This document shows, piece after piece, positions 11,509 to 62,694 of a stretch of DNA of 64,000 nt. The DNA comes from Candidatus Multivoradales bacterium (GTDB taxonomy: Bacteria; Acidobacteriota; Thermoanaerobaculia; Multivoradales; JAHEKO01), in the NCBI GenBank assembly GCA_965223855.1, contig CBDCXM010000009.1, forward strand, positions 1,792,001-1,856,000. The letters run 5' to 3'. Position 1 is the stretch's first letter; the number at the start of each line of letters is the position of its first letter. The notes under the pieces were generated by a model. The model searched no databases and was not told the origin of the DNA. It saw nothing but the letters and a program-made list of their open reading frames with translations. The translations under genes and the position numbers were made by a program.

Positions 11509-12648
11509 GTGAGCGTCGGTTTCGAGGTGCTCGCCCGCGACGGCGAGGCGCGGCGCGGCAGGCTGTCGACCCCTCACGGCGCGGTGGAGACGCCGGCCTT
11601 CATGCCGGTCGGCTCGCTCGGGGCCGTGAAGGGGGTGACGCCGGCCGCGCTCGAGGAGGCGGGGGCCCAGGTGATGCTGTCGAACCTCTACCACCTGTCG
11701 CTGCGGCCGGGGATCCAGGTCATCGAGTCGCTCGGCGGCATCCATGCCTTCACCGGCTGGAATCGCCCGATCCTCACCGACAGTGGCGGGTTCCAGGTGT
11801 TCTCGCTGGCCCGCATGCGGCGGATCGACGCCGACGGGGTGACGTTTCGCAATCACGTCGACGGCGACGAGATGCGGTTGACCCCCGAGAGCGTGGTCGA
11901 CGACCAGAAGCGGCTCGGGGTCGATCTCGCCATGGTGCTCGACGAGTGTCCGCCATGGCCGGTTTCGCGCCACGAAGCCGAGGTCTCGCTCGATCGCACG
12001 CAGGCCTGGGCACGGCGCGCCCGCGAGGCGTGGACCGGCGACCCGCCGTGGCTGTTGGGGATCGTTCAGGGTTCGGTCTTCCCCGAGCTGCGCCGCCGTG
12101 CGATCGAGGAGCTCGCGGCGATGGACTTCCCCGGCTATGCCGTCGGCGGCGTCAGCGTCGGCGAGCCGAGCGAAGACCGCCGGCAGGTGGTCGAGTGGTC
12201 GGCCCCCGCGCTGCCGGAGACGAAGCCTCGTTACCTCATGGGCGTCGGCACCCCCGACGACATCGCCCACGCCGTCGCCCACGGCATCGATCTCTTCGAC
12301 TGCGTCATGCCGAGCCGCAATGCGCGGCACGGCCAGCTCTTCACCCGCGAGGGCCCGCTGAGGATCAAGAACGCTGCGTTCAAGAAGGACGAACGGCCGG
12401 TCGATGCCGGGTGTGGCTGCCCGTGCTGCAGCCGTGTGAGCCGGGCGTTTCTGCACCATCTGTTCCGCACCGGAGAGATCACCGGGGCAGTGCTGGCGAC
12501 GCTCCACAACGTCCGCTTCTATCTTGACTTTATGGGGGATCTCCGGGAAGCTATCGCGTCCGCCTCACTGGCGGAAATGCTGGCATCGAGGCGGTTCCTC
12601 GATCGAGCGGTCGCCGGCCCCTCGCCGGAATCTCCCCCGTCCAGGTGA
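11509..12648 (+). CDS. tgt: Queuine tRNA-ribosyltransferase
   Basis: ETPAFMPVG, TDSGGFQVFSL, YLMGVG, FDCVMP, CGCPCC Zn site. Confidence 0.97.
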   Translation: MSVGFEVLARDGEARRGRLSTPHGAVETPAFMPVGSLGAVKGVTPAALEEAGAQVMLSNLYHLSLRPGIQVIESLGGIHAFTGWNRPILTDSGGFQVFSLARMRRIDADGVTFRNHVDGDEMRLTPESVVDDQKRLGVDLAMVLDECPPWPVSRHEAEVSLDRTQAWARRAREAWTGDPPWLLGIVQGSVFPELRRRAIEELAAMDFPGYAVGGVSVGEPSEDRRQVVEWSAPALPETKPRYLMGVGTPDDIAHAVAHGIDLFDCVMPSRNARHGQLFTREGPLRIKNAAFKKDERPVDAGCGCPCCSRVSRAFLHHLFRTGEITGAVLATLHNVRFYLDFMGDLREAIASASLAEMLASRRFLDRAVAGPSPESPPSR

Positions 12649-12760
12649 TGTTCTCCCGGGGTACCTCCGGGGGCGGACCGCAACGTCGCCGGCCGAGCAC
12701 GGAAGCCGTTCGTCGCACCCCAACCTCTCAGTCGCCCAAGCAGCCAGCCCGGAGTTCGAT

Positions 12761-13066
12761 ATGAGTTCGCTCGTGACCCTTCTCGCTCAGACGACCGGCC
12801 CGTCCGGCCTCATGAGCTTCCTGCCGCTCGTCCTGATCTTCGCGATCTTCTACTTCCTGCTGATCGCGCCGATGCGCAAGCGGCAGAAGCAGTTGCAGGA
12901 GATGATCGCCGAGCTCAAGAAGGGCGACAAGGTGGTGACGACCGGCGGCATCCACGGCGAGGTCTACGCCCTCGAGGAGTCGACGCTCTTGCTCAAGATC
13001 GCCGACAACGTGCGGATCAAGATCGCCCGGTCGGCGATCTCCGGCAAGGAAGGCGAGGAGATCTGA
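12761..13066 (+). CDS. yajC: Preprotein translocase subunit YajC
   Basis: FYFLLIAP, LKKGDKVVTTGGIHG; lies between tgt and secD. Confidence 0.95.
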   Translation: MSSLVTLLAQTTGPSGLMSFLPLVLIFAIFYFLLIAPMRKRQKQLQEMIAELKKGDKVVTTGGIHGEVYALEESTLLLKIADNVRIKIARSAISGKEGEEI

Positions 13067-14634
13067 TGAATCGAAGCCTGCTCTGGCGCGGCCTGACGAT
13101 CGTCGCCGTCGCCGCGATCGTTCTGCTCTCGGCGCTGCCGCTCGAAGAGAACATCAAGCTCGGCCTCGACCTGCGAGGCGGCATTCACCTCAAGCTCGAG
13201 GTGGCGACCGAGGACGCTCTGCGCTCCGAGACCGACAAGGATCTGGAACGGCTCCTGGCCGAGCTCTCGGACAACGGTGTTTCGACCGCCAGCGGCGATC
13301 GACTCGACGACTCGAGCTTCGTGGTTCGCGGCGTCACCTCGGCCAACGACGACGACGTGAGAACGATCGTCGACGACTTCCTCCCCGGCTGGAACTACCA
13401 GAGGAGCGGCGACGAGCTCACCTTCCGGATGGAGACGACGAACCGCAACACGATCACCAATCTGGCGGTGGTGCAGGCGGTGGAGACGATCCGCAACCGG
13501 GTCGACGCCTTCGGCGTGGCCGAGCCGGTGATCCAGCGCCAGGGTGCGAAGCGGGTGGTCGTCGAACTGCCGGGCGTCGATGACCCGGAGCGCGTCAAGG
13601 AACTCATCGGCACGCCGGCTTTCCTCGAGTTCCGGCTCGTCGACTATCCGCTGCGGGGCGCGGGAGCGATCAGCGAGGGGGATGTGCTGGCCAACTATGG
13701 CGGTGTGCTCCCCGCGAACCTCGAGATGAAGACTCAGATCGCGCGGGACGACGACGGGCAGGAGACGGGGCGCTTCTACTACGCGGTGGAGAAGCGGGCG
13801 GCGATCACCGGTCGCGATCTGCGCAACGCCCGCCCCGGCCTCGGCGACTTCAACCAGCCGGTCGTCAACTTCTTCCTCACCCACGAGGGGGGGCAGCGGT
13901 TCGGCGAGCTGACCGGCAACAATGTCGGCAAAGGGCTCGCCATCGTGCTCGACGGCTTCGTCGTGTCGGCGCCCAACATCAACAGCCGGATCAACGACCA
14001 GGGGATCATCGAGGGCGGCTTCACCCAGCGCGAGGTCGAGGATCTCTCGACGGTGCTGCGCTCCGGTGCACTGCCGGCTGGGATCTCCTACCTCGAAGAG
14101 CGCACGGTCGGCCCGTCGCTCGGTCAGGACTCGATCCGCCGGGGGCTGCGCGCGGGACTGCTCGGGCTCGGCCTCATCATCCTGCTGATGGTCGTCATCT
14201 ACAAGGTCACCGGCTTCAATGCTGTGCTGGCGCTGGTGCTCAACATCGCCGTGATCTTCGGTGCCCTGGCCTACTTCGACGCCACGCTGACACTCCCGGG
14301 CATCGCGGGGATCGTCCTCATCATCGGCATGGCGGTCGATGCCAACGTGCTGGTCTTCGAGCGGATCCGTGAGGAGCTGCGCAAGGGCCGCACCGTCAAG
14401 TCGTCGATCGACGCCGGCTTCGCCAAGGCGCTGTCGTCGGTGCTCGACGCCAACATCACGACGCTCATTGCCGCGCTCTTCCTCTTCCAGTTCGGCACCG
14501 GGCCGATTCGCGGCTTCGCGGTGACGCTCTCGATCGGCATCCTCGCCTCGGTCTTCACCGCCATCTTCGTCAGCCGCTGGATCTTCGATCTGGTGATCTC
14601 GCGCCGTCGCAAGGTCGACCGACTCTCCATCTAG
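13066..14634 (+). CDS. secD: Protein translocase subunit SecD
   Basis: LGLDLRGG, RVDAFGVAEP, LRSGALP, GMAVDANVLVFERIREE. Confidence 0.97.
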   Translation: MNRSLLWRGLTIVAVAAIVLLSALPLEENIKLGLDLRGGIHLKLEVATEDALRSETDKDLERLLAELSDNGVSTASGDRLDDSSFVVRGVTSANDDDVRTIVDDFLPGWNYQRSGDELTFRMETTNRNTITNLAVVQAVETIRNRVDAFGVAEPVIQRQGAKRVVVELPGVDDPERVKELIGTPAFLEFRLVDYPLRGAGAISEGDVLANYGGVLPANLEMKTQIARDDDGQETGRFYYAVEKRAAITGRDLRNARPGLGDFNQPVVNFFLTHEGGQRFGELTGNNVGKGLAIVLDGFVVSAPNINSRINDQGIIEGGFTQREVEDLSTVLRSGALPAGISYLEERTVGPSLGQDSIRRGLRAGLLGLGLIILLMVVIYKVTGFNAVLALVLNIAVIFGALAYFDATLTLPGIAGIVLIIGMAVDANVLVFERIREELRKGRTVKSSIDAGFAKALSSVLDANITTLIAALFLFQFGTGPIRGFAVTLSIGILASVFTAIFVSRWIFDLVISRRRKVDRLSI

Positions 14635-14816
14635 GCCTCAACTTCTCGCACCACTGCACTCCGGTAGGCCGTATGTCACTGCATCTACTTCGTTTTCCGT
14701 TCGCTGCGCTCCTCGACGTAGCTACGGCTATGCCTGCGGTGCTCGCGACCGGAAGCCTTGTATCTCCAGCAACCTACGACCTACCAAAGCGCAGTGGCGT
14801 GAGAAGTTCAGGCTAG
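14631..14816. mobile_element. 186-bp palindromic MITE-like element with CTAG at both ends
   Basis: Left CTAGGCCTCAACTTCTCGCACCACTGCAC is nearly the reverse complement of right GCGCAGTGGCGTGAGAAGTTCAGGCTAG; left CTAG contains the secD stop. Confidence 0.8.
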
Positions 14817-14856
14817 CGCGCCAGCCGCGGCCCCGACCGGGCCAGGAGCCTTTTCC

Positions 14857-58967: not shown

Positions 58968-61151
58968 TCAGGGCCGCCATCGGAGAGTCAGTCGGCCGCT
59001 GCGGCGCTCGAGAGGATGGAAATGTACGTCCTCGACCCCTTCGACCGGCTCGCCTCGAAGCCGTGAGGCGTAGTAGTACTCGATGTCGCTGTCCTCGCGG
59101 TCGAGGAGGTTGAAAGCGGCGAGTTCCAGGTCGAGGCCCGGTCGGAGCTTCCAGGTCGCCTTCGCGGTGACGTTGGAGGCGGACGCCCAGACCGCGGATC
59201 GATCCTCGATGAGCGGGGTGTCGGCGAAGTAGCGCCAGCGGAGGCTGCCGGAGAAGCGACCGAGGTCGCGCACGGTCACGCCTGCGGCGACCGTTCGGCC
59301 GATCGCTCCCGGGATGGCGTCGCCCGCGGGATCGGTGTCGGTGAACTCGGCGTCCGTCCAGGTGGCATCGGCGTCCAGGGTGAGCCAGCGGCGAGGGCGC
59401 CAGGTGTGGCTCCACTCGACGCCGAGTCGATGGCTTGGGCGGCTGGCTTCGGTCGCCCCGCCGTCGCCGACGAAGAGAAGCTCGGAGTCGAGCTCCAGCG
59501 AGAAGAGCGAGAGCGCCGTCGTCCAGACGCCGGATCCGGTCCGGACTCCGATCTCTGCACCGCGTGCGGCGACGAGCGGATCGACCGCTTCGACCGACTC
59601 TCCCGACGCCGGATCGACCCGGATCGTCGCCCCGCGGGCGTCGTTGCTGTGAAAGCCGCCGCCGTAGCCGAGGAAGTACTCGGTTCTGCCGAAGGGACCG
59701 AAGACGAGCGCGAGCTTGGGGGAGACGATGAGGTCGTCGGCGCTTCCCGAGTTCTCGGGGCGGGTGGCGGCGACCGTCGCGTCGTAGCCGTCGATGCGCA
59801 GGCCGAAGGTGCTGCGGAAGCGGTCGCTCCAACGCACGACGCTCTCGGCCCAGACTCCCACGCCCAGCTGCTCGATGCTGTCGTCGCGGACCGTGTCGAA
59901 GCGCTCGAGCTCGGTGGTGCGGAAGAGTCCGTTGTCGATGTCGTCGTAGCGCAGGTCGAGACCGGTTCGATTCGTCACCCGACGCTCGCCGAAAGAGCTC
60001 AGCCACTCGTGTCGGGTGCCAAAGCCGAGCACGGTCCGGTCGTCGACCTGCTCGAACTGGTCGCCGAGAGCAGGGTTGTCGAGGAGATAGGTGAAGTTCG
60101 AGATCAGCCGGAAGTCGTAGGAAACCAAGTAGCCGGCGACGGTCGTCAGCGACTGTTCGTTGCCGCGATGGAGCTCGGCCGAGAGCTGCAGCCGTCGGGT
60201 TTCGCCTCGCGGCCCGGGGTCGATCAGGTCGAAGCGACCGATCGCGCCCGACTCGACGGCGCGCAACGGCACCTGGTCGGTCGACAGCCAGGAGCCGTCG
60301 TAGGCGAGCGCGCTGACCGAGAAGCCGCGGGCGGGATCGCCGCGATGAAAGCTCACGAGAGCGTTCGCCTTCTCGAACGAGCCGGGCCGGGTCCAGGGAC
60401 CGTCTTCGTGCGAGAGGTCGAGGGCCGCGGTCAGGTCGCCGCCTCCGGTCGTCGTGCTGCCGGCAACGAGCGCTCTGCCAAAGCCGAAGCTGCCGCCCGA
60501 AAGCTGGATCAACGGCTCATCGAGCCTTCTCACGAGCCCGAGGTCGGCCGAACCGGCGGCCGAGAAGTCGCCGACCTCGGCATCGTAGGTGCCCTTGCGA
60601 TAGGAGACTCGATCGACCAGCTCCGGGATCAGGAAGGAGACGTCGATGTACCCCTGGCCGTGCCCGTGCGACGGCATGTTGACCGGTACCCCGGCGACGC
60701 GGATGCTGAAGTCGGTGCCGTGGTCGAGATTGAAGCCGCGCAGGAAGTACTGATTCGCCTTGCCGCCGCCGCTGTGCTGGGTGGCGATGATGCCGGGGAC
60801 CGTCTCGACGAGCTCTCCGGCGCGCTGGATCGGCCGCTGTTGCAGATCTTCGGCGCCGGTCGTGCCCTCGCTGGCGGCGTCGGTGAGCCCGGTGAGGTCG
60901 TCGGTGCGCCCTCGCACTTCGACCCGGTCGTAGACGTCGAGACGATCGTCCTCCTGGTCGGGGTCAGGGTTGGCGGTTTCGGCCGGGGCCTCGTTGTCGA
61001 CCGTCCGAGGTGCTTCGACACCGGCAGGAGCGGTCTCCTGAAGGGGCGCGGAGGGCGCGGAAGACACCTCGGCGCCGGCAGGCCAGCCGACGAGGAAGAT
61101 CGTTGCCAGAACGGGGGGCAGGATTCGGATTCGTGTTCGGATTCGGAGCAT
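58968..61151 (-). CDS. TonB-dependent receptor (probable metal uptake)
   Basis: Signal peptide; plug TQHSGGGKANQYFLRGFNLDHGTDF, HGHGQGY; FNLLD; C-terminal barrel strand. Confidence 0.92.
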   Translation of the reverse strand: MLRIRTRIRILPPVLATIFLVGWPAGAEVSSAPSAPLQETAPAGVEAPRTVDNEAPAETANPDPDQEDDRLDVYDRVEVRGRTDDLTGLTDAASEGTTGAEDLQQRPIQRAGELVETVPGIIATQHSGGGKANQYFLRGFNLDHGTDFSIRVAGVPVNMPSHGHGQGYIDVSFLIPELVDRVSYRKGTYDAEVGDFSAAGSADLGLVRRLDEPLIQLSGGSFGFGRALVAGSTTTGGGDLTAALDLSHEDGPWTRPGSFEKANALVSFHRGDPARGFSVSALAYDGSWLSTDQVPLRAVESGAIGRFDLIDPGPRGETRRLQLSAELHRGNEQSLTTVAGYLVSYDFRLISNFTYLLDNPALGDQFEQVDDRTVLGFGTRHEWLSSFGERRVTNRTGLDLRYDDIDNGLFRTTELERFDTVRDDSIEQLGVGVWAESVVRWSDRFRSTFGLRIDGYDATVAATRPENSGSADDLIVSPKLALVFGPFGRTEYFLGYGGGFHSNDARGATIRVDPASGESVEAVDPLVAARGAEIGVRTGSGVWTTALSLFSLELDSELLFVGDGGATEASRPSHRLGVEWSHTWRPRRWLTLDADATWTDAEFTDTDPAGDAIPGAIGRTVAAGVTVRDLGRFSGSLRWRYFADTPLIEDRSAVWASASNVTAKATWKLRPGLDLELAAFNLLDREDSDIEYYYASRLRGEPVEGVEDVHFHPLERRSGRLTLRWRP

Positions 61152-61354
61152 GAGCCTTCTCTCTCTCCGGGCTTCGTAACCCACCCGGACGCCTCGGGTT
61201 CGCTCCCGCAAGGCTCGCGTTGCGAAGATCCGCGCGCACTCCGCGCGCACGAGCCTGCCGGGGAGAGGATCCGGGCAATCCGGAGGCCGGAGAATCGGGT
61301 CGATCGAGTCGGGTCGCTCGCCTTGCGGCGGGCGGCACGGCGGTCAGACGACTC

Positions 61355-61771
61355 TCAGGCGGGGCTGGGGGGAGCCCGGGCGGGTGACCCCGTGTGGTGA
61401 CGGTGGACGCTCGCCTCCCAGGCTTGCGCGACCGTTTCCGTGGTGACCGTGGGCTCGAGCAGGTCGTGCTCGGCGGCAGCGACGCCGAGCGAAGCTGCGA
61501 GCAGACTGACGAACCCCTCAGAGTCCTGCTCGTCCTCCGCAGGCGAAGGTCGTCCCTCCGGCTCCGATCCTCGGTCCGAGCGATCAGGCTCGTAAGCCCC
61601 TCCACCACCTGGCTCATGGCGATGCTTCCCCAGGTGCGGGTGGGTGTGGAACCCCTCGAACCCGCCGAGTAGGTGGAGGTGGCCGTGCGAGACGATGCCG
61701 AGGACACCCAGACTCGCCGCCGCCGCAACAGCCAACAGCAGAAGGAGGCGGGTCTGGGGGGCGGCTCTCAT
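61355..61771 (-). CDS. His-rich exported leader protein with C-terminal RAPP motif (DUF2946-like)
   Basis: Hydrophobic N-terminus; HGHLH..HTHPH..HRH; ends HRHHTGSPARAPPSPA; directly upstream of the TBDR. Confidence 0.78.
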   Translation of the reverse strand: MRAAPQTRLLLLLAVAAAASLGVLGIVSHGHLHLLGGFEGFHTHPHLGKHRHEPGGGGAYEPDRSDRGSEPEGRPSPAEDEQDSEGFVSLLAASLGVAAAEHDLLEPTVTTETVAQAWEASVHRHHTGSPARAPPSPA

Positions 61772-61881
61772 GGGCAGCCAGCTTAGCAGTGTGCCACGGA
61801 CGGCGGACCGTGTGCCCGGTTCTTCCTCTCTACCTGAAGAGCGTAGTTCCGATCAGAGGGACCGTCTCGATTCCTCGAGTG

Positions 61882-62694
61882 CTACCGAGGCCGCGGACTG
61901 TACTGACGCGCCAGCAGCCGGCACAGTCCGTCGAGACCGGGGAAGAGCACCCTCTCGTTGACGTTCGCCTGGTCGAGCTTGTCGCGGATCTCCCATTTGA
62001 GCTCGTGCGGGATCTCGATCCGGCGGTAGACCTCGGGTCTCGGCAGCAGCCACTCCTCGACCGTCATGCGGGCGCTCGAGAGCACCGAGAAGAGGGCGAA
62101 CTGGTTGACGATTCGCGGGCTCAGAGACGGCGGTTCGAAGAAGACGAGGAAGGGGTCCTCGCGCAGCCCCTCGAAGTCCGGCAGGGAGGCGGCGACCTCG
62201 CCGAGCATCTCGGTGGAGAAGGCGTCCGCCTCTTCCCGGCGCAGAGACTTCAGCAGCTCGGGTGGGAGCTGCTTGTTGGTTCGCGTGTAGTCGATGCACC
62301 AGATCGTGCCGTCTTCGTCGAAGCGGCGGATGTCGTCGGTAACGAAGTGGAGCGCGACGAACGGGGAGTAGGTCCAGTCCAGCAGCCGGGTCGGCAGGCC
62401 GTGGTGCTGGGCCTGGGCGAGCAGGTTCCACATCGACCTCTGCTCGCCACCCTCGAGGTAGGCGTACTTGCGGAAGTTGCGGATCAGGTGACGCTCGAGG
62501 CGGGCGTAGTCCCCTCCCAGTCGCGAGAGGCTGGTCTGGAGCGGCCAGTCGCGCGACGCCATGCCGCGGAAGGCGTAGGTCGACCGGTAGCGCCCGATCG
62601 CCGGCTGCCACGATCCCTCGAAGAGCTCGTTCTGAAGCTCCGCCCAGCTCCCGACCCGGACGACCTTCGCCGGGCGTGCCCTCTTCTCCGGCAC
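61882..62694 (-). CDS. FRG domain protein
   Basis: AFRGM, LQTSL.R, AQHHGLPTRLLDWT..P.VAL.F, RIVNQ, LFPGLDG. Confidence 0.9.
   Translation of the reverse strand: MPEKRARPAKVVRVGSWAELQNELFEGSWQPAIGRYRSTYAFRGMASRDWPLQTSLSRLGGDYARLERHLIRNFRKYAYLEGGEQRSMWNLLAQAQHHGLPTRLLDWTYSPFVALHFVTDDIRRFDEDGTIWCIDYTRTNKQLPPELLKSLRREEADAFSTEMLGEVAASLPDFEGLREDPFLVFFEPPSLSPRIVNQFALFSVLSSARMTVEEWLLPRPEVYRRIEIPHELKWEIRDKLDQANVNERVLFPGLDGLCRLLARQYSPRPR

Follow-up and report, generated by a model that had tools for sequence, protein, structure and literature searches.

A conserved histidine-rich leader ending in R[AG]PP precedes a TonB-dependent receptor in an acidobacterial clade and may be a metal-sensing arrest peptide

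The window analysed here is a stretch of 64,000 nucleotides (nt) from Candidatus Multivoradales bacterium (Acidobacteriota, Thermoanaerobaculia; contig CBDCXM010000009.1, positions 1,792,001 to 1,856,000). On its minus strand, a 138-codon open reading frame (ORF) is located upstream of a gene for a TonB-dependent receptor. Sequence comparison indicates that the ORF is a conserved gene and not a chance frame, and it precedes one family of TonB-dependent receptors wherever its context is visible. We propose that it encodes a regulatory leader peptide, not a stable protein, and assign a probability of about 0.6 to the reading that the leader is a histidine-based, metal-sensing arrest peptide that controls the receptor. 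The metal may be nickel, to which relatives of the receptor are tied in other lineages by their neighbouring genes.

Organization of the leader and the receptor

The leader ORF (61355–61771, stop codon included; this and the following features of the locus are on the minus strand) starts with ATG, and can be divided into a hydrophobic N-terminal stretch, a histidine motif, a linker, and a putative arrest motif. The N-terminal helix spans residues 5–27 (61691–61759), has a 15-residue Kyte-Doolittle maximum of 2.6, and may function as a signal peptide or signal anchor. It is followed by the histidine cluster SHGHLHLLGGFEGFHTHPHLGKHRH (residues 28–52), in which residues 29–52 (61616–61687) form the motif HxHxH-x8-HxHxH-x3-HxH. 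The linker of residues 53–131 (61379–61615) is variable and rich in Pro, Ala, Ser, Asp, and Glu, and includes the sequence HRHH (residues 123–126), which is not kept in the leader family. The putative ribosome-arrest motif R132-A-P-P135 (61367–61378), the Arg of which is 80 residues from the last core histidine, is followed by the three-residue tail S-P-A and the TGA stop codon at 61357–61355 (together 61355–61366). The leader contains no cysteine. A first-pass annotation of the window had described the ORF, the N-terminal signal or transmembrane segment, the histidine cluster, HRHH, RAPP, and the lack of cysteine, all of which are correct on the sequence.

The structure of the leader predicted by AlphaFold2 (AF2) with 121 family members contains a confident helix of residues 5–27, with a predicted local distance difference test (pLDDT) of 86–94 in this block, and a beta hairpin over the histidine motif (residues 30–35 and 38–43). 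The remainder is mostly low-confidence coil (block pLDDT 52–67) with a short helix of residues 114–121, a globular domain is not predicted, and confidence rises again only in the last eight residues. The presence of RAPP is in itself weak evidence in DNA with 68% G+C, since R[AG]PP occurs anywhere in 441 of the 15189 ORFs of 70–250 residues in the genome, and within the last 19 residues in 68.

The receptor gene (58968–61151) encodes 727 residues, and its ATG at 61151 is positioned behind a purine tract (61155–61168). Pfam identifies Plug (1.9e-13) and TonB_dep_Rec_b-barrel (2.9e-16) domains, in agreement with the co-directional receptor that had been annotated 203 nt after the leader. The AF2 model of the receptor has a 22-strand transporter fold with a predicted template modelling score of 0.76. 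According to Foldseek, it resembles PqqU, FecA, and FhuA, with template modelling scores of 0.65–0.73, and the nearest of these, PqqU/YncD, has a sequence identity of 17%. The nearest solved structures by sequence profile, PqqU/YncD and BtuB, are too distant for the substrate to be read from the structure.

Conservation of the leader family

A search of 40 relatives with the window receptor identified ten clear orthologues with sequence identities of 48–64%. In seven of these an ORF of the same build immediately precedes the receptor on the same strand, ending in RAPP in genomes G001, G020, and G029, and in RGPP in G019, G024, G026, and G033 (here and below, handles beginning with G, L, and C are ours for genomes, loci, and contigs). 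The suggestion that receptor homologues would keep a histidine-rich leader of this kind is thereby borne out. The region ahead of the receptor in G038, G040, and G005 showed no ORF of this kind. The eight syntenic leaders, including that of the window, are 22–31% identical overall, and ten of their residues are invariant: H31, H33, H42, H44, G48, H50, H52, R132, P134, and P135.

A profile of the eight syntenic leaders, compared with 1.84 billion representative proteins, retrieved a family of 134 representatives at E ≤ 1e-3 (17 at E ≤ 1e-10) with a median length of 146 residues. The C-terminal motif is RGPP in 64 representatives, RAPP in 57, and RPPP in 10; it is missing from three, two of which look truncated. 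The tail after R[AGP]PP is 1–18 residues long in 128 of 131 members, and most commonly consists of a single residue (39 members). The Arg is preceded by Pro in 83 of the 131 members, and the two prolines are followed by Ala or Ser in 77. Because the motif was part of the search profile, none of these counts is entirely independent; the syntenic set is independent, having been found through the receptor.

The histidine core is present in 124 of the 134 representatives. Cysteine is absent from 44, and CxxC occurs in only six, five of which carry it 47–49 residues before the Arg. In the alignment of 121 members, H31, H42, H44, H50, and H52, together with the Arg and both prolines of the motif, are invariant, and H33 and G48 are conserved in at least 90%. 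The signature of the family is six near-invariant histidines, HxH-x8-HxH-x5-HxH, positioned after an N-terminal membrane helix and before a variable linker with a mean column identity of 13%. A hydrophobic segment precedes the core in 111 of 124 members and ends a median of 6 residues ahead of the first histidine. The distance from the last core histidine to the Arg has a minimum of 65 residues in the 124 members, rises sharply in frequency at 69–71, has a median of 77, and is 65–95 in 118 of them. The lower limit may reflect the length of polypeptide that it takes to cross the ribosome tunnel and translocon, with the histidine hairpin already outside at the time of arrest.

Searches seeded with the leader found it in seven other genomes (G001, G019, G020, G026, G033, G041, and G178), always directly before a receptor of the same family. 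No conserved neighbours beyond the leader and receptor pair were found across the compared genomes. At least 14 proteins were returned by a homologous-protein search with the 121-member alignment, in which 8000 candidates with common words were scored; none of the 14 has a precomputed Pfam domain, and the only name given is 'hypothetical protein'. The protein atlas clusters for the leader bear the same name and are commonest in Myxococcota, which is at odds with the nearest receptor loci, whose titles name Acidobacteriota.

One Acidobacteriota metagenome-assembled genome (MAG) contains a fused arrangement (L057, 1571–4546, plus strand), in which a histidine-rich leader with RGPP at residue 189 continues in frame and without a stop codon into the receptor, forming one ORF of 991 codons. 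This may be a natural read-through arrangement or an assembly error.

Comparison with described arrest-peptide leaders

CruR (Bp2923) of Bordetella pertussis, which belongs to DUF2946 (PF11162), is the copper-responsive leader of the receptor BfrG/CrtA (PMC9426467; PMC12914433). RAPP is located three residues before the end of CruR, and the intergenic region has 162 nt; arrest without copper is reported to shield the transcript from Rho, and copper to relieve the arrest and thus switch the receptor off (PMC9426467). The arrest has been shown in vitro (PMC12992588). The window leader is likewise a leader of about 140 residues with an export signal, is the first gene of its unit, and has a C-terminal RAPP and a long spacer (203 vs 162 nt) before a TonB-dependent receptor. 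The logic that we propose for it would also be equal, with arrest keeping the receptor on and metal switching it off. The two differ in the sensor, since CruR has CxxC 45–49 residues from the Arg, whereas the window leader has no cysteine and three HxH pairs at least 65 residues from the Arg. Furthermore, the receptor is of another family (neither CrtA nor BfrG is named in the PDB sequence and fold listings, though the copy searched was not checked for such an entry), and the metal is likely not copper.

The first-pass annotation had regarded the leader as a histidine-based variant of the DUF2946 leaders. What stands of this idea is a conserved, exported, histidine-rich leader with R[AG]PP before one receptor family that is tied to nickel elsewhere; the kinship with DUF2946 is not supported. 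In hidden Markov model searches, the leader has no match to PF11162 at E ≤ 10, and no Pfam match at all. PF11162 has no match in the genome at E ≤ 0.01 and none above the cut-off in 41 relatives, and it matches 10 of the 121 family members at E ≤ 1. The Pfam model is insensitive in this lineage, as it also misses, at E ≤ 0.01, the two CxxC-containing RAPP leaders that the genome encodes, and a profile–profile comparison was made for this reason. When the histidine family was compared by hhalign with nine CxxC-type leaders, all nine of which match DUF2946, only 11 C-terminal columns around P-R-[AG]-P-P were aligned, with a probability of 94.9. Five weak matches of the eight-leader profile combine a histidine-rich N-terminal part with CxxC 47–49 residues before the Arg, which is the spacing of CruR. 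Membership of the leader in DUF2946 is not supported by these alignments, which leave room for a distant or mosaic link to the DUF2946 leaders.

Bacterial ribosomes that translate RAPP or RGPP stall when the two Pro codons occupy the P and A sites (PMC12992588; PMC10951233), and upstream ORFs (uORFs) that encode these motifs, nearly all with signal sequences, precede TonB-dependent receptors across Gram-negative bacteria (PMC12992588). A C-terminal R-[A/G]-P-P, an N-terminal localisation signal, and an upstream position are common to the leader and to ApdA, ApdP, the RQH family, and the 'TonB-related' uORFs (PMC10987492; PMC12992588; PMC10951233). In the leader family, R[AG]PP near the C terminus is kept in 121 of the 134 representatives (RPPP in ten more), together with the N-terminal signal and the upstream same-strand position. 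The best-studied peptides of the class differ in that they monitor Sec or YidC, and the main text of PMC12992588 presents no histidine-rich, cysteine-free receptor leader and no link to nickel.

In CutF of Rhodobacter, copper-induced stalling melts a hairpin over the ribosome-binding site of the next gene (10.1101/2025.02.05.636593). The window leader has the properties by which CutF-like leaders are recognized in PMC9973294: it is shorter than 150 residues, has PP within its last 15 residues and an N-terminal signal, and is followed by a gene on the same strand within 1000 nt. Its putative metal site consists of histidines only. Among the CutF-like leaders, the histidine-only sequence similarity network clusters 14 and 17 of Ozturk et al. 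2023 were suggested to sense nickel or cobalt (PMC9973294). These clusters adjoin HupE/UreJ permeases, whereas the window leader adjoins a receptor.

RAPP/RGPP uORFs before TonB-dependent receptors (PMC12992588) and histidine-only, possibly nickel- or cobalt-sensing CutF-like leaders (PMC9973294) are thus already in print. In the texts consulted we did not find the 3 × HxH family, its pairing solely with receptors of a family tied to the NikR regulon, its apparent replacement of NikR in one clade, or the minimum spacing; the supplements of these two papers may hold the family. A literature search for a nickel-linked RAPP leader gave nothing relevant among the matches listed, which is weak evidence, as 'Rapp' is also an author name.

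Link of the receptor family to nickel

The receptor family has at least 587 relatives in a scan with one genome per species. The best 80 of these are 42–59% identical to the window receptor, and their titles name Acidobacteriota, Verrucomicrobiota, Alpha-, Beta-, and Gammaproteobacteria, Planctomycetota, and Leptospira, with the closest titled Acidobacteriota or Thermoanaerobaculia. Within 2.5 kb of these 80 receptor genes, a NikR homologue is encoded at 14 loci and a NiCoT (NicO) permease directly upstream at six, with one or the other present at 18. Pfam confirms NikR_C and RHH_1 in the four NikR homologues tested (from Bradyrhizobium, Methylophilus, one Thermoanaerobaculia record, and one Verrucomicrobia record), and NicO at the Dechloromonas locus.

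The NikR operator of E. coli is GTATGA-N15-17-TCATAC. Palindromes with at most one mismatch to this operator occur at 13 of the 80 loci, vs a single match in the control of reversed sequences. Every one of these NikR-box-like sites immediately precedes either the receptor gene or the NicO gene ahead of it; twelve are at NikR or NicO loci, and the thirteenth is in another Bradyrhizobium. At least one nickel mark (NikR, NicO, or a NikR-box-like site) is associated with 19 of the 80 receptor homologues, which come from Proteobacteria, Verrucomicrobiota, and one Thermoanaerobaculia record. These neighbours support a tie of the receptor family to nickel in other lineages.

In Helicobacter, nickel receptors are repressed by NikR when nickel is present (PMC3856676), and Bll6948 of Bradyrhizobium and Daro_3944 of Dechloromonas are listed among the Ni(II) TonB-dependent transporters (PMC11247825). 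These last two are probably of the same family as the window receptor; the homologues of the window receptor in Bradyrhizobium and Dechloromonas adjoin NikR, NicO, and NikR-box-like sites. The window receptor resembles the NikR-repressed receptors (FrpB4 and FecA3 of Helicobacter pylori, Bll6948, and Daro_3944) in being an outer-membrane TonB-dependent receptor of a nickel-tied family. The difference is in the means of control, which is a DNA-binding repressor in those cases, whereas in the window it would act through the nascent peptide after transcription has started. The proposed leader logic, which keeps the receptor on under metal scarcity and turns it off once the metal is bound, would match the effect of NikR on such receptors.

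Receptor residues H126, H144, H164, and H501 are invariant in 90 of 90 family members, and seven receptor histidines are common to the leader-bearing, NikR-linked, and remaining members. In a FastTree phylogeny of the 90 receptors, the 12 leader-bearing ones form a single clade with a support of 99, every member of which has the leader (the window's own, G001, G020, G024, G026, G029, G033, G041, L056, L057, L059, and L062). Records titled Acidobacteriota or Thermoanaerobaculia are among them. G019 and G178 have both leader and receptor and are not in the tree. The nearest rows outside the clade (G038, G040, L058, and L060) are without a leader, and the rows with a nickel mark, none of which has the leader, are dispersed among the other branches.

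Neither a NikR gene, an operator, nor a nickel permease was found at the window locus or at the searched loci of nine relatives, and NikR_C has no match in the genome of the window, which is 92.5% complete. The window receptor is therefore a relative of NikR-controlled receptors that is not itself controlled by NikR. Among 41 genomes, NikR was found only in G028 and G032, both of which lack the receptor and the leader, and in none of the nine leader-bearing genomes. At the 80 loci the leader (six loci) and the nickel marks (19 loci) never overlap, where about 1.4 overlaps would be expected by chance; with numbers so small and loci that are related, this has no statistical meaning.

L065, the NikR-linked Thermoanaerobaculia record, is sister to the Acidobacteriota MAG L088 with a support of 99. 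In L088 and in the Verrucomicrobia MAG L081, other cysteine-free, histidine-containing ORFs with a hydrophobic N terminus are located upstream of the receptor match. They end in ARGPPAPLSLPSTT and GRAPPIRS, respectively, the motif of L088 being RGPP, and are without the 3 × HxH core.

The intergenic region and Rho

The intergenic region between the leader stop codon and the receptor ATG is 203 nt long (61152–61354), and such regions range from 87 to 215 nt across the loci. It has no terminator-like site on the leader strand, and a sigma-70-like promoter was not found. Its only Rfam match at E ≤ 1 is a chance snoRNA-like one on the opposite strand, and its folding z-score of -1.0 is no better than that of shuffled sequences. 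A C-rich, G-poor stretch of 78 nt extends across the 3' end and stop codon of the leader (61330–61407), with (C-G)/78 = 0.26, and the best such stretch starts 32–89 nt before the leader stop codon at eight of eight loci. As a possible Rho loading site it is suggestive only. Rho is encoded in the genome.

Pairing between the Pro-codon-rich footprint of the stalled ribosome and the purine-rich ribosome-binding region of the receptor was predicted at three of eight loci (L011, L013, and L015, from G020, G029, and G033), with 8.5–9.6 expected pairs vs means of 1.5–2.3 in shuffled sequences; it was not predicted at the remaining five. At the window locus the same measure is 0.00, and the pairing of the ribosome-binding site is 0.55 vs 0.65 in shuffles.

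Proposed mechanism and alternative explanations

In the mechanism that we consider the best explanation, the N-terminal helix would bring the nascent chain to the inner-membrane translocon, and the histidine hairpin would end on the periplasmic side. The ribosome would stall at R132-A-P-P135, three codons ahead of the stop codon, when the histidine motif 80 residues upstream is already beyond the ribosome and the translocon. As long as metal is scarce, the ribosome stalled there would cover the C-rich 3' end of the leader and keep Rho off, and the receptor downstream would be transcribed and translated. Binding of metal, most likely Ni(II), to the hairpin would pull or refold the nascent chain and relieve the arrest; the ribosome would then terminate, Rho would stop transcription in the intergenic region, and the receptor would be off. 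The leader would thus do the job of NikR in a clade in which NikR was not found. We hold this complete account, a CruR-like arrest switch with a histidine sensor, probably for Ni(II), to be somewhat more probable than its negation. The logic of CruR is favoured because Rho is encoded, the spacer contains neither terminator nor fold, the 3' end of the leader is C-rich, and pairing with the stall footprint is lacking at the window locus. The evolutionary extension, that a nickel-sensing nascent peptide replaced NikR by joining an independent 3 × HxH sensor module to the common R[AG]PP arrest module and now controls a nickel receptor in this acidobacterial clade, is tentative, and we would not bet on it at even odds.

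Several observations weigh against this mechanism. Pro, Ala, and Arg codons account for part of the C-rich tract, and Rho dependence is not predictable from sequence. Binding by histidine-rich motifs extends to Zn, Co, and Cu(II). Nickel marks accompany only 19 of the 80 receptor homologues and are absent from the leader clade, so the substrate of the leader-clade receptors could differ. The genome has no match for NicO, HupE_UreJ, CbiM, the NiFe-hydrogenase large subunit, urease alpha, HypA, or Lar_N. The genome does encode Sod_Ni (E = 4e-30, exceeding the cut-off), which was found in 3 of 11 receptor-carrying vs 4 of 30 receptor-less genomes (41 in total), which is no clear association; the evidence that the organism needs nickel is mixed. 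Because hhalign finds no homology beyond the motif, the mechanism of CruR is not transferable by descent. In CruR, the spacing from CxxC to RAPP is fixed to within 1–2 residues (PMC9426467), unlike the 65–207 residues between sensor and arrest motif in the leader family, and in CutF, which is of the same class, the metal has the opposite effect and induces stalling.

Nickel is the best-supported metal, because of the role of the receptor family elsewhere; for the leader clade we put its chance close to even, on the lower side. A leader that senses Zn(II), Co(II), or Cu(II), before a receptor that imports that metal or its chelate, would agree with HxH clusters that are not selective in themselves, with the few nickel enzymes and importers in the genome, and with the lack of nickel marks in the clade. 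Seven of the 121 family members have weak Pfam matches to ZIP zinc transporters, caused by the histidine-rich stretches, and both NiCoT permeases and the histidine-only CutF-like leaders are linked to cobalt as well (PMC9973294). We nevertheless consider another metal unlikely, at perhaps one chance in several, given that nickel marks accompany receptor homologues from three phyla, that the receptor histidines are common to the marked and leader-bearing groups, and that Sod_Ni is encoded. Zinc in particular is less likely than nickel because a CxxC-type RAPP leader precedes a ZnuD-like receptor in the same genome. The direction of control could also be reversed, as in CutF of Rhodobacter (10.1101/2025.02.05.636593), with metal inducing or prolonging the stall and thereby opening an mRNA structure that hides the ribosome-binding site of the receptor, so that the ligand would switch the receptor on. 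The pairing at three of eight loci speaks for such a switch; it is absent from the window locus and four others, the fold of the spacer is unremarkable, and a cell would have little reason to induce an uptake receptor while the metal abounds. NikR represses such receptors in the presence of nickel (PMC3856676). We regard this reversal as improbable.

Two further explanations were considered. The ORF might encode a stable, membrane-anchored or periplasmic, histidine-rich metal-binding protein, a chaperone or store that works with the receptor, in which case R[AG]PP would merely tune translation or couple the genes. The length of 138 residues, which is long for a leader, and the histidine motif as the best-conserved part of the sequence are compatible with this, and small histidine-rich nickel-binding proteins such as Hpn and Hpn-like are described. 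It is nonetheless quite improbable, since beyond the helix and hairpin there is only a low-complexity linker without a predicted fold, the only further invariant element is an established stalling motif set at a constant distance from the stop codon, the intergenic regions are long, and the products of CruR and CutF were reported as not detected in vivo (PMC9426467; PMC9973294). Alternatively, the leader could monitor export or membrane insertion (Sec, YidC), as SecM, ApdA, and ApdP do, with the histidines being incidental. Most characterised RAPP/RGPP arrest peptides are such monitors, released by the force of translocation (PMC12992588), and the leader has an export signal. The downstream gene, however, is a receptor and not sec or yidC, and six histidines that are invariant or nearly so in 121 divergent members would be needless for a pure export monitor, which makes this explanation highly implausible.

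To our knowledge, CruR and CutF are the only metal-sensing leader peptides studied experimentally, and both respond to copper and are cysteine-based. A cysteine-free leader family with six conserved histidines, paired with receptors whose relatives are under NikR elsewhere, would be a first concrete candidate for a nickel-responsive arrest peptide. If a nickel-sensing nascent peptide did replace NikR, this leader and the CxxC-type leaders of the same genome would together imply that the metal sensors of arrest peptides are modular, with ligand modules exchangeable for different metals. The sharp lower limit of about 65–70 residues between sensor and arrest motif constitutes a testable geometric prediction. 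A likely substrate would moreover be assigned to a widespread receptor family (at least 587 loci) without a close solved relative.

Other RAPP and RGPP leaders and neighbouring genes

Five ORFs with a terminal R[AG]PP pass the genome-scan filters for N-terminal hydrophobicity and a coding-like base pattern: the histidine leader, two CxxC-containing RAPP leaders, one RGPP ORF, and one that looks spurious. The CxxC-containing leaders, of 119 and 117 residues, are located on contig C6 (3755–4114, minus strand; L052) and contig C9 (3063130–3063483, minus strand; L054 5131–5484). Each precedes a TonB-dependent receptor with a CarboxypepD_reg domain, and the receptor on C6 is a homologue of ZnuD (E = 1e-69), which hints that the C6 leader may be a zinc-related arrest leader of the cysteine type. 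Cysteine-type and histidine-type leaders precede distinct receptor families in one cell, which suggests that different metals have sensors of their own. Since both types are present in one genome, they would form a natural pair for asking how the binding of a ligand outside the membrane reaches the catalytic centre of the ribosome. The RGPP ORF on contig C8 (353378–353800, minus strand; L053 4879–5301) encodes 140 residues with an N-terminal hydrophobic segment and ends in PRGPPVLLS; it precedes a gene for a Phenol_MetA_deg-like outer-membrane protein, which is followed by a ClpX-like gene.

Directly upstream of the window leader is a gene for an FRG-domain protein (61882–62694, minus strand; Pfam 3e-27), which is not conserved beside the leader in other genomes. 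In G020 (L043), a second leader (11870–12277, plus strand) ends in GRAPPQV, has a weak match to DUF2946 (E = 0.0097), and precedes a CarboxypepD_reg-type receptor (12321–14855, plus strand); it is about 2 kb from the histidine leader and receptor unit, on the opposite strand. A histidine-rich exported ORF in G283 (L042 1495–1887, plus strand), which matches the leader family weakly (E = 3e-6), ends in SPAPPSAA, without the Arg, and is located directly before a gene that by eye resembles an outer-membrane efflux factor of the CzcC/TolC type. In G035 (L030), a CxxC leader of 91 residues ending in APRGPPAA is positioned directly before a P-loop ORF that by eye resembles a metallochaperone GTPase of the CobW/G3E type.

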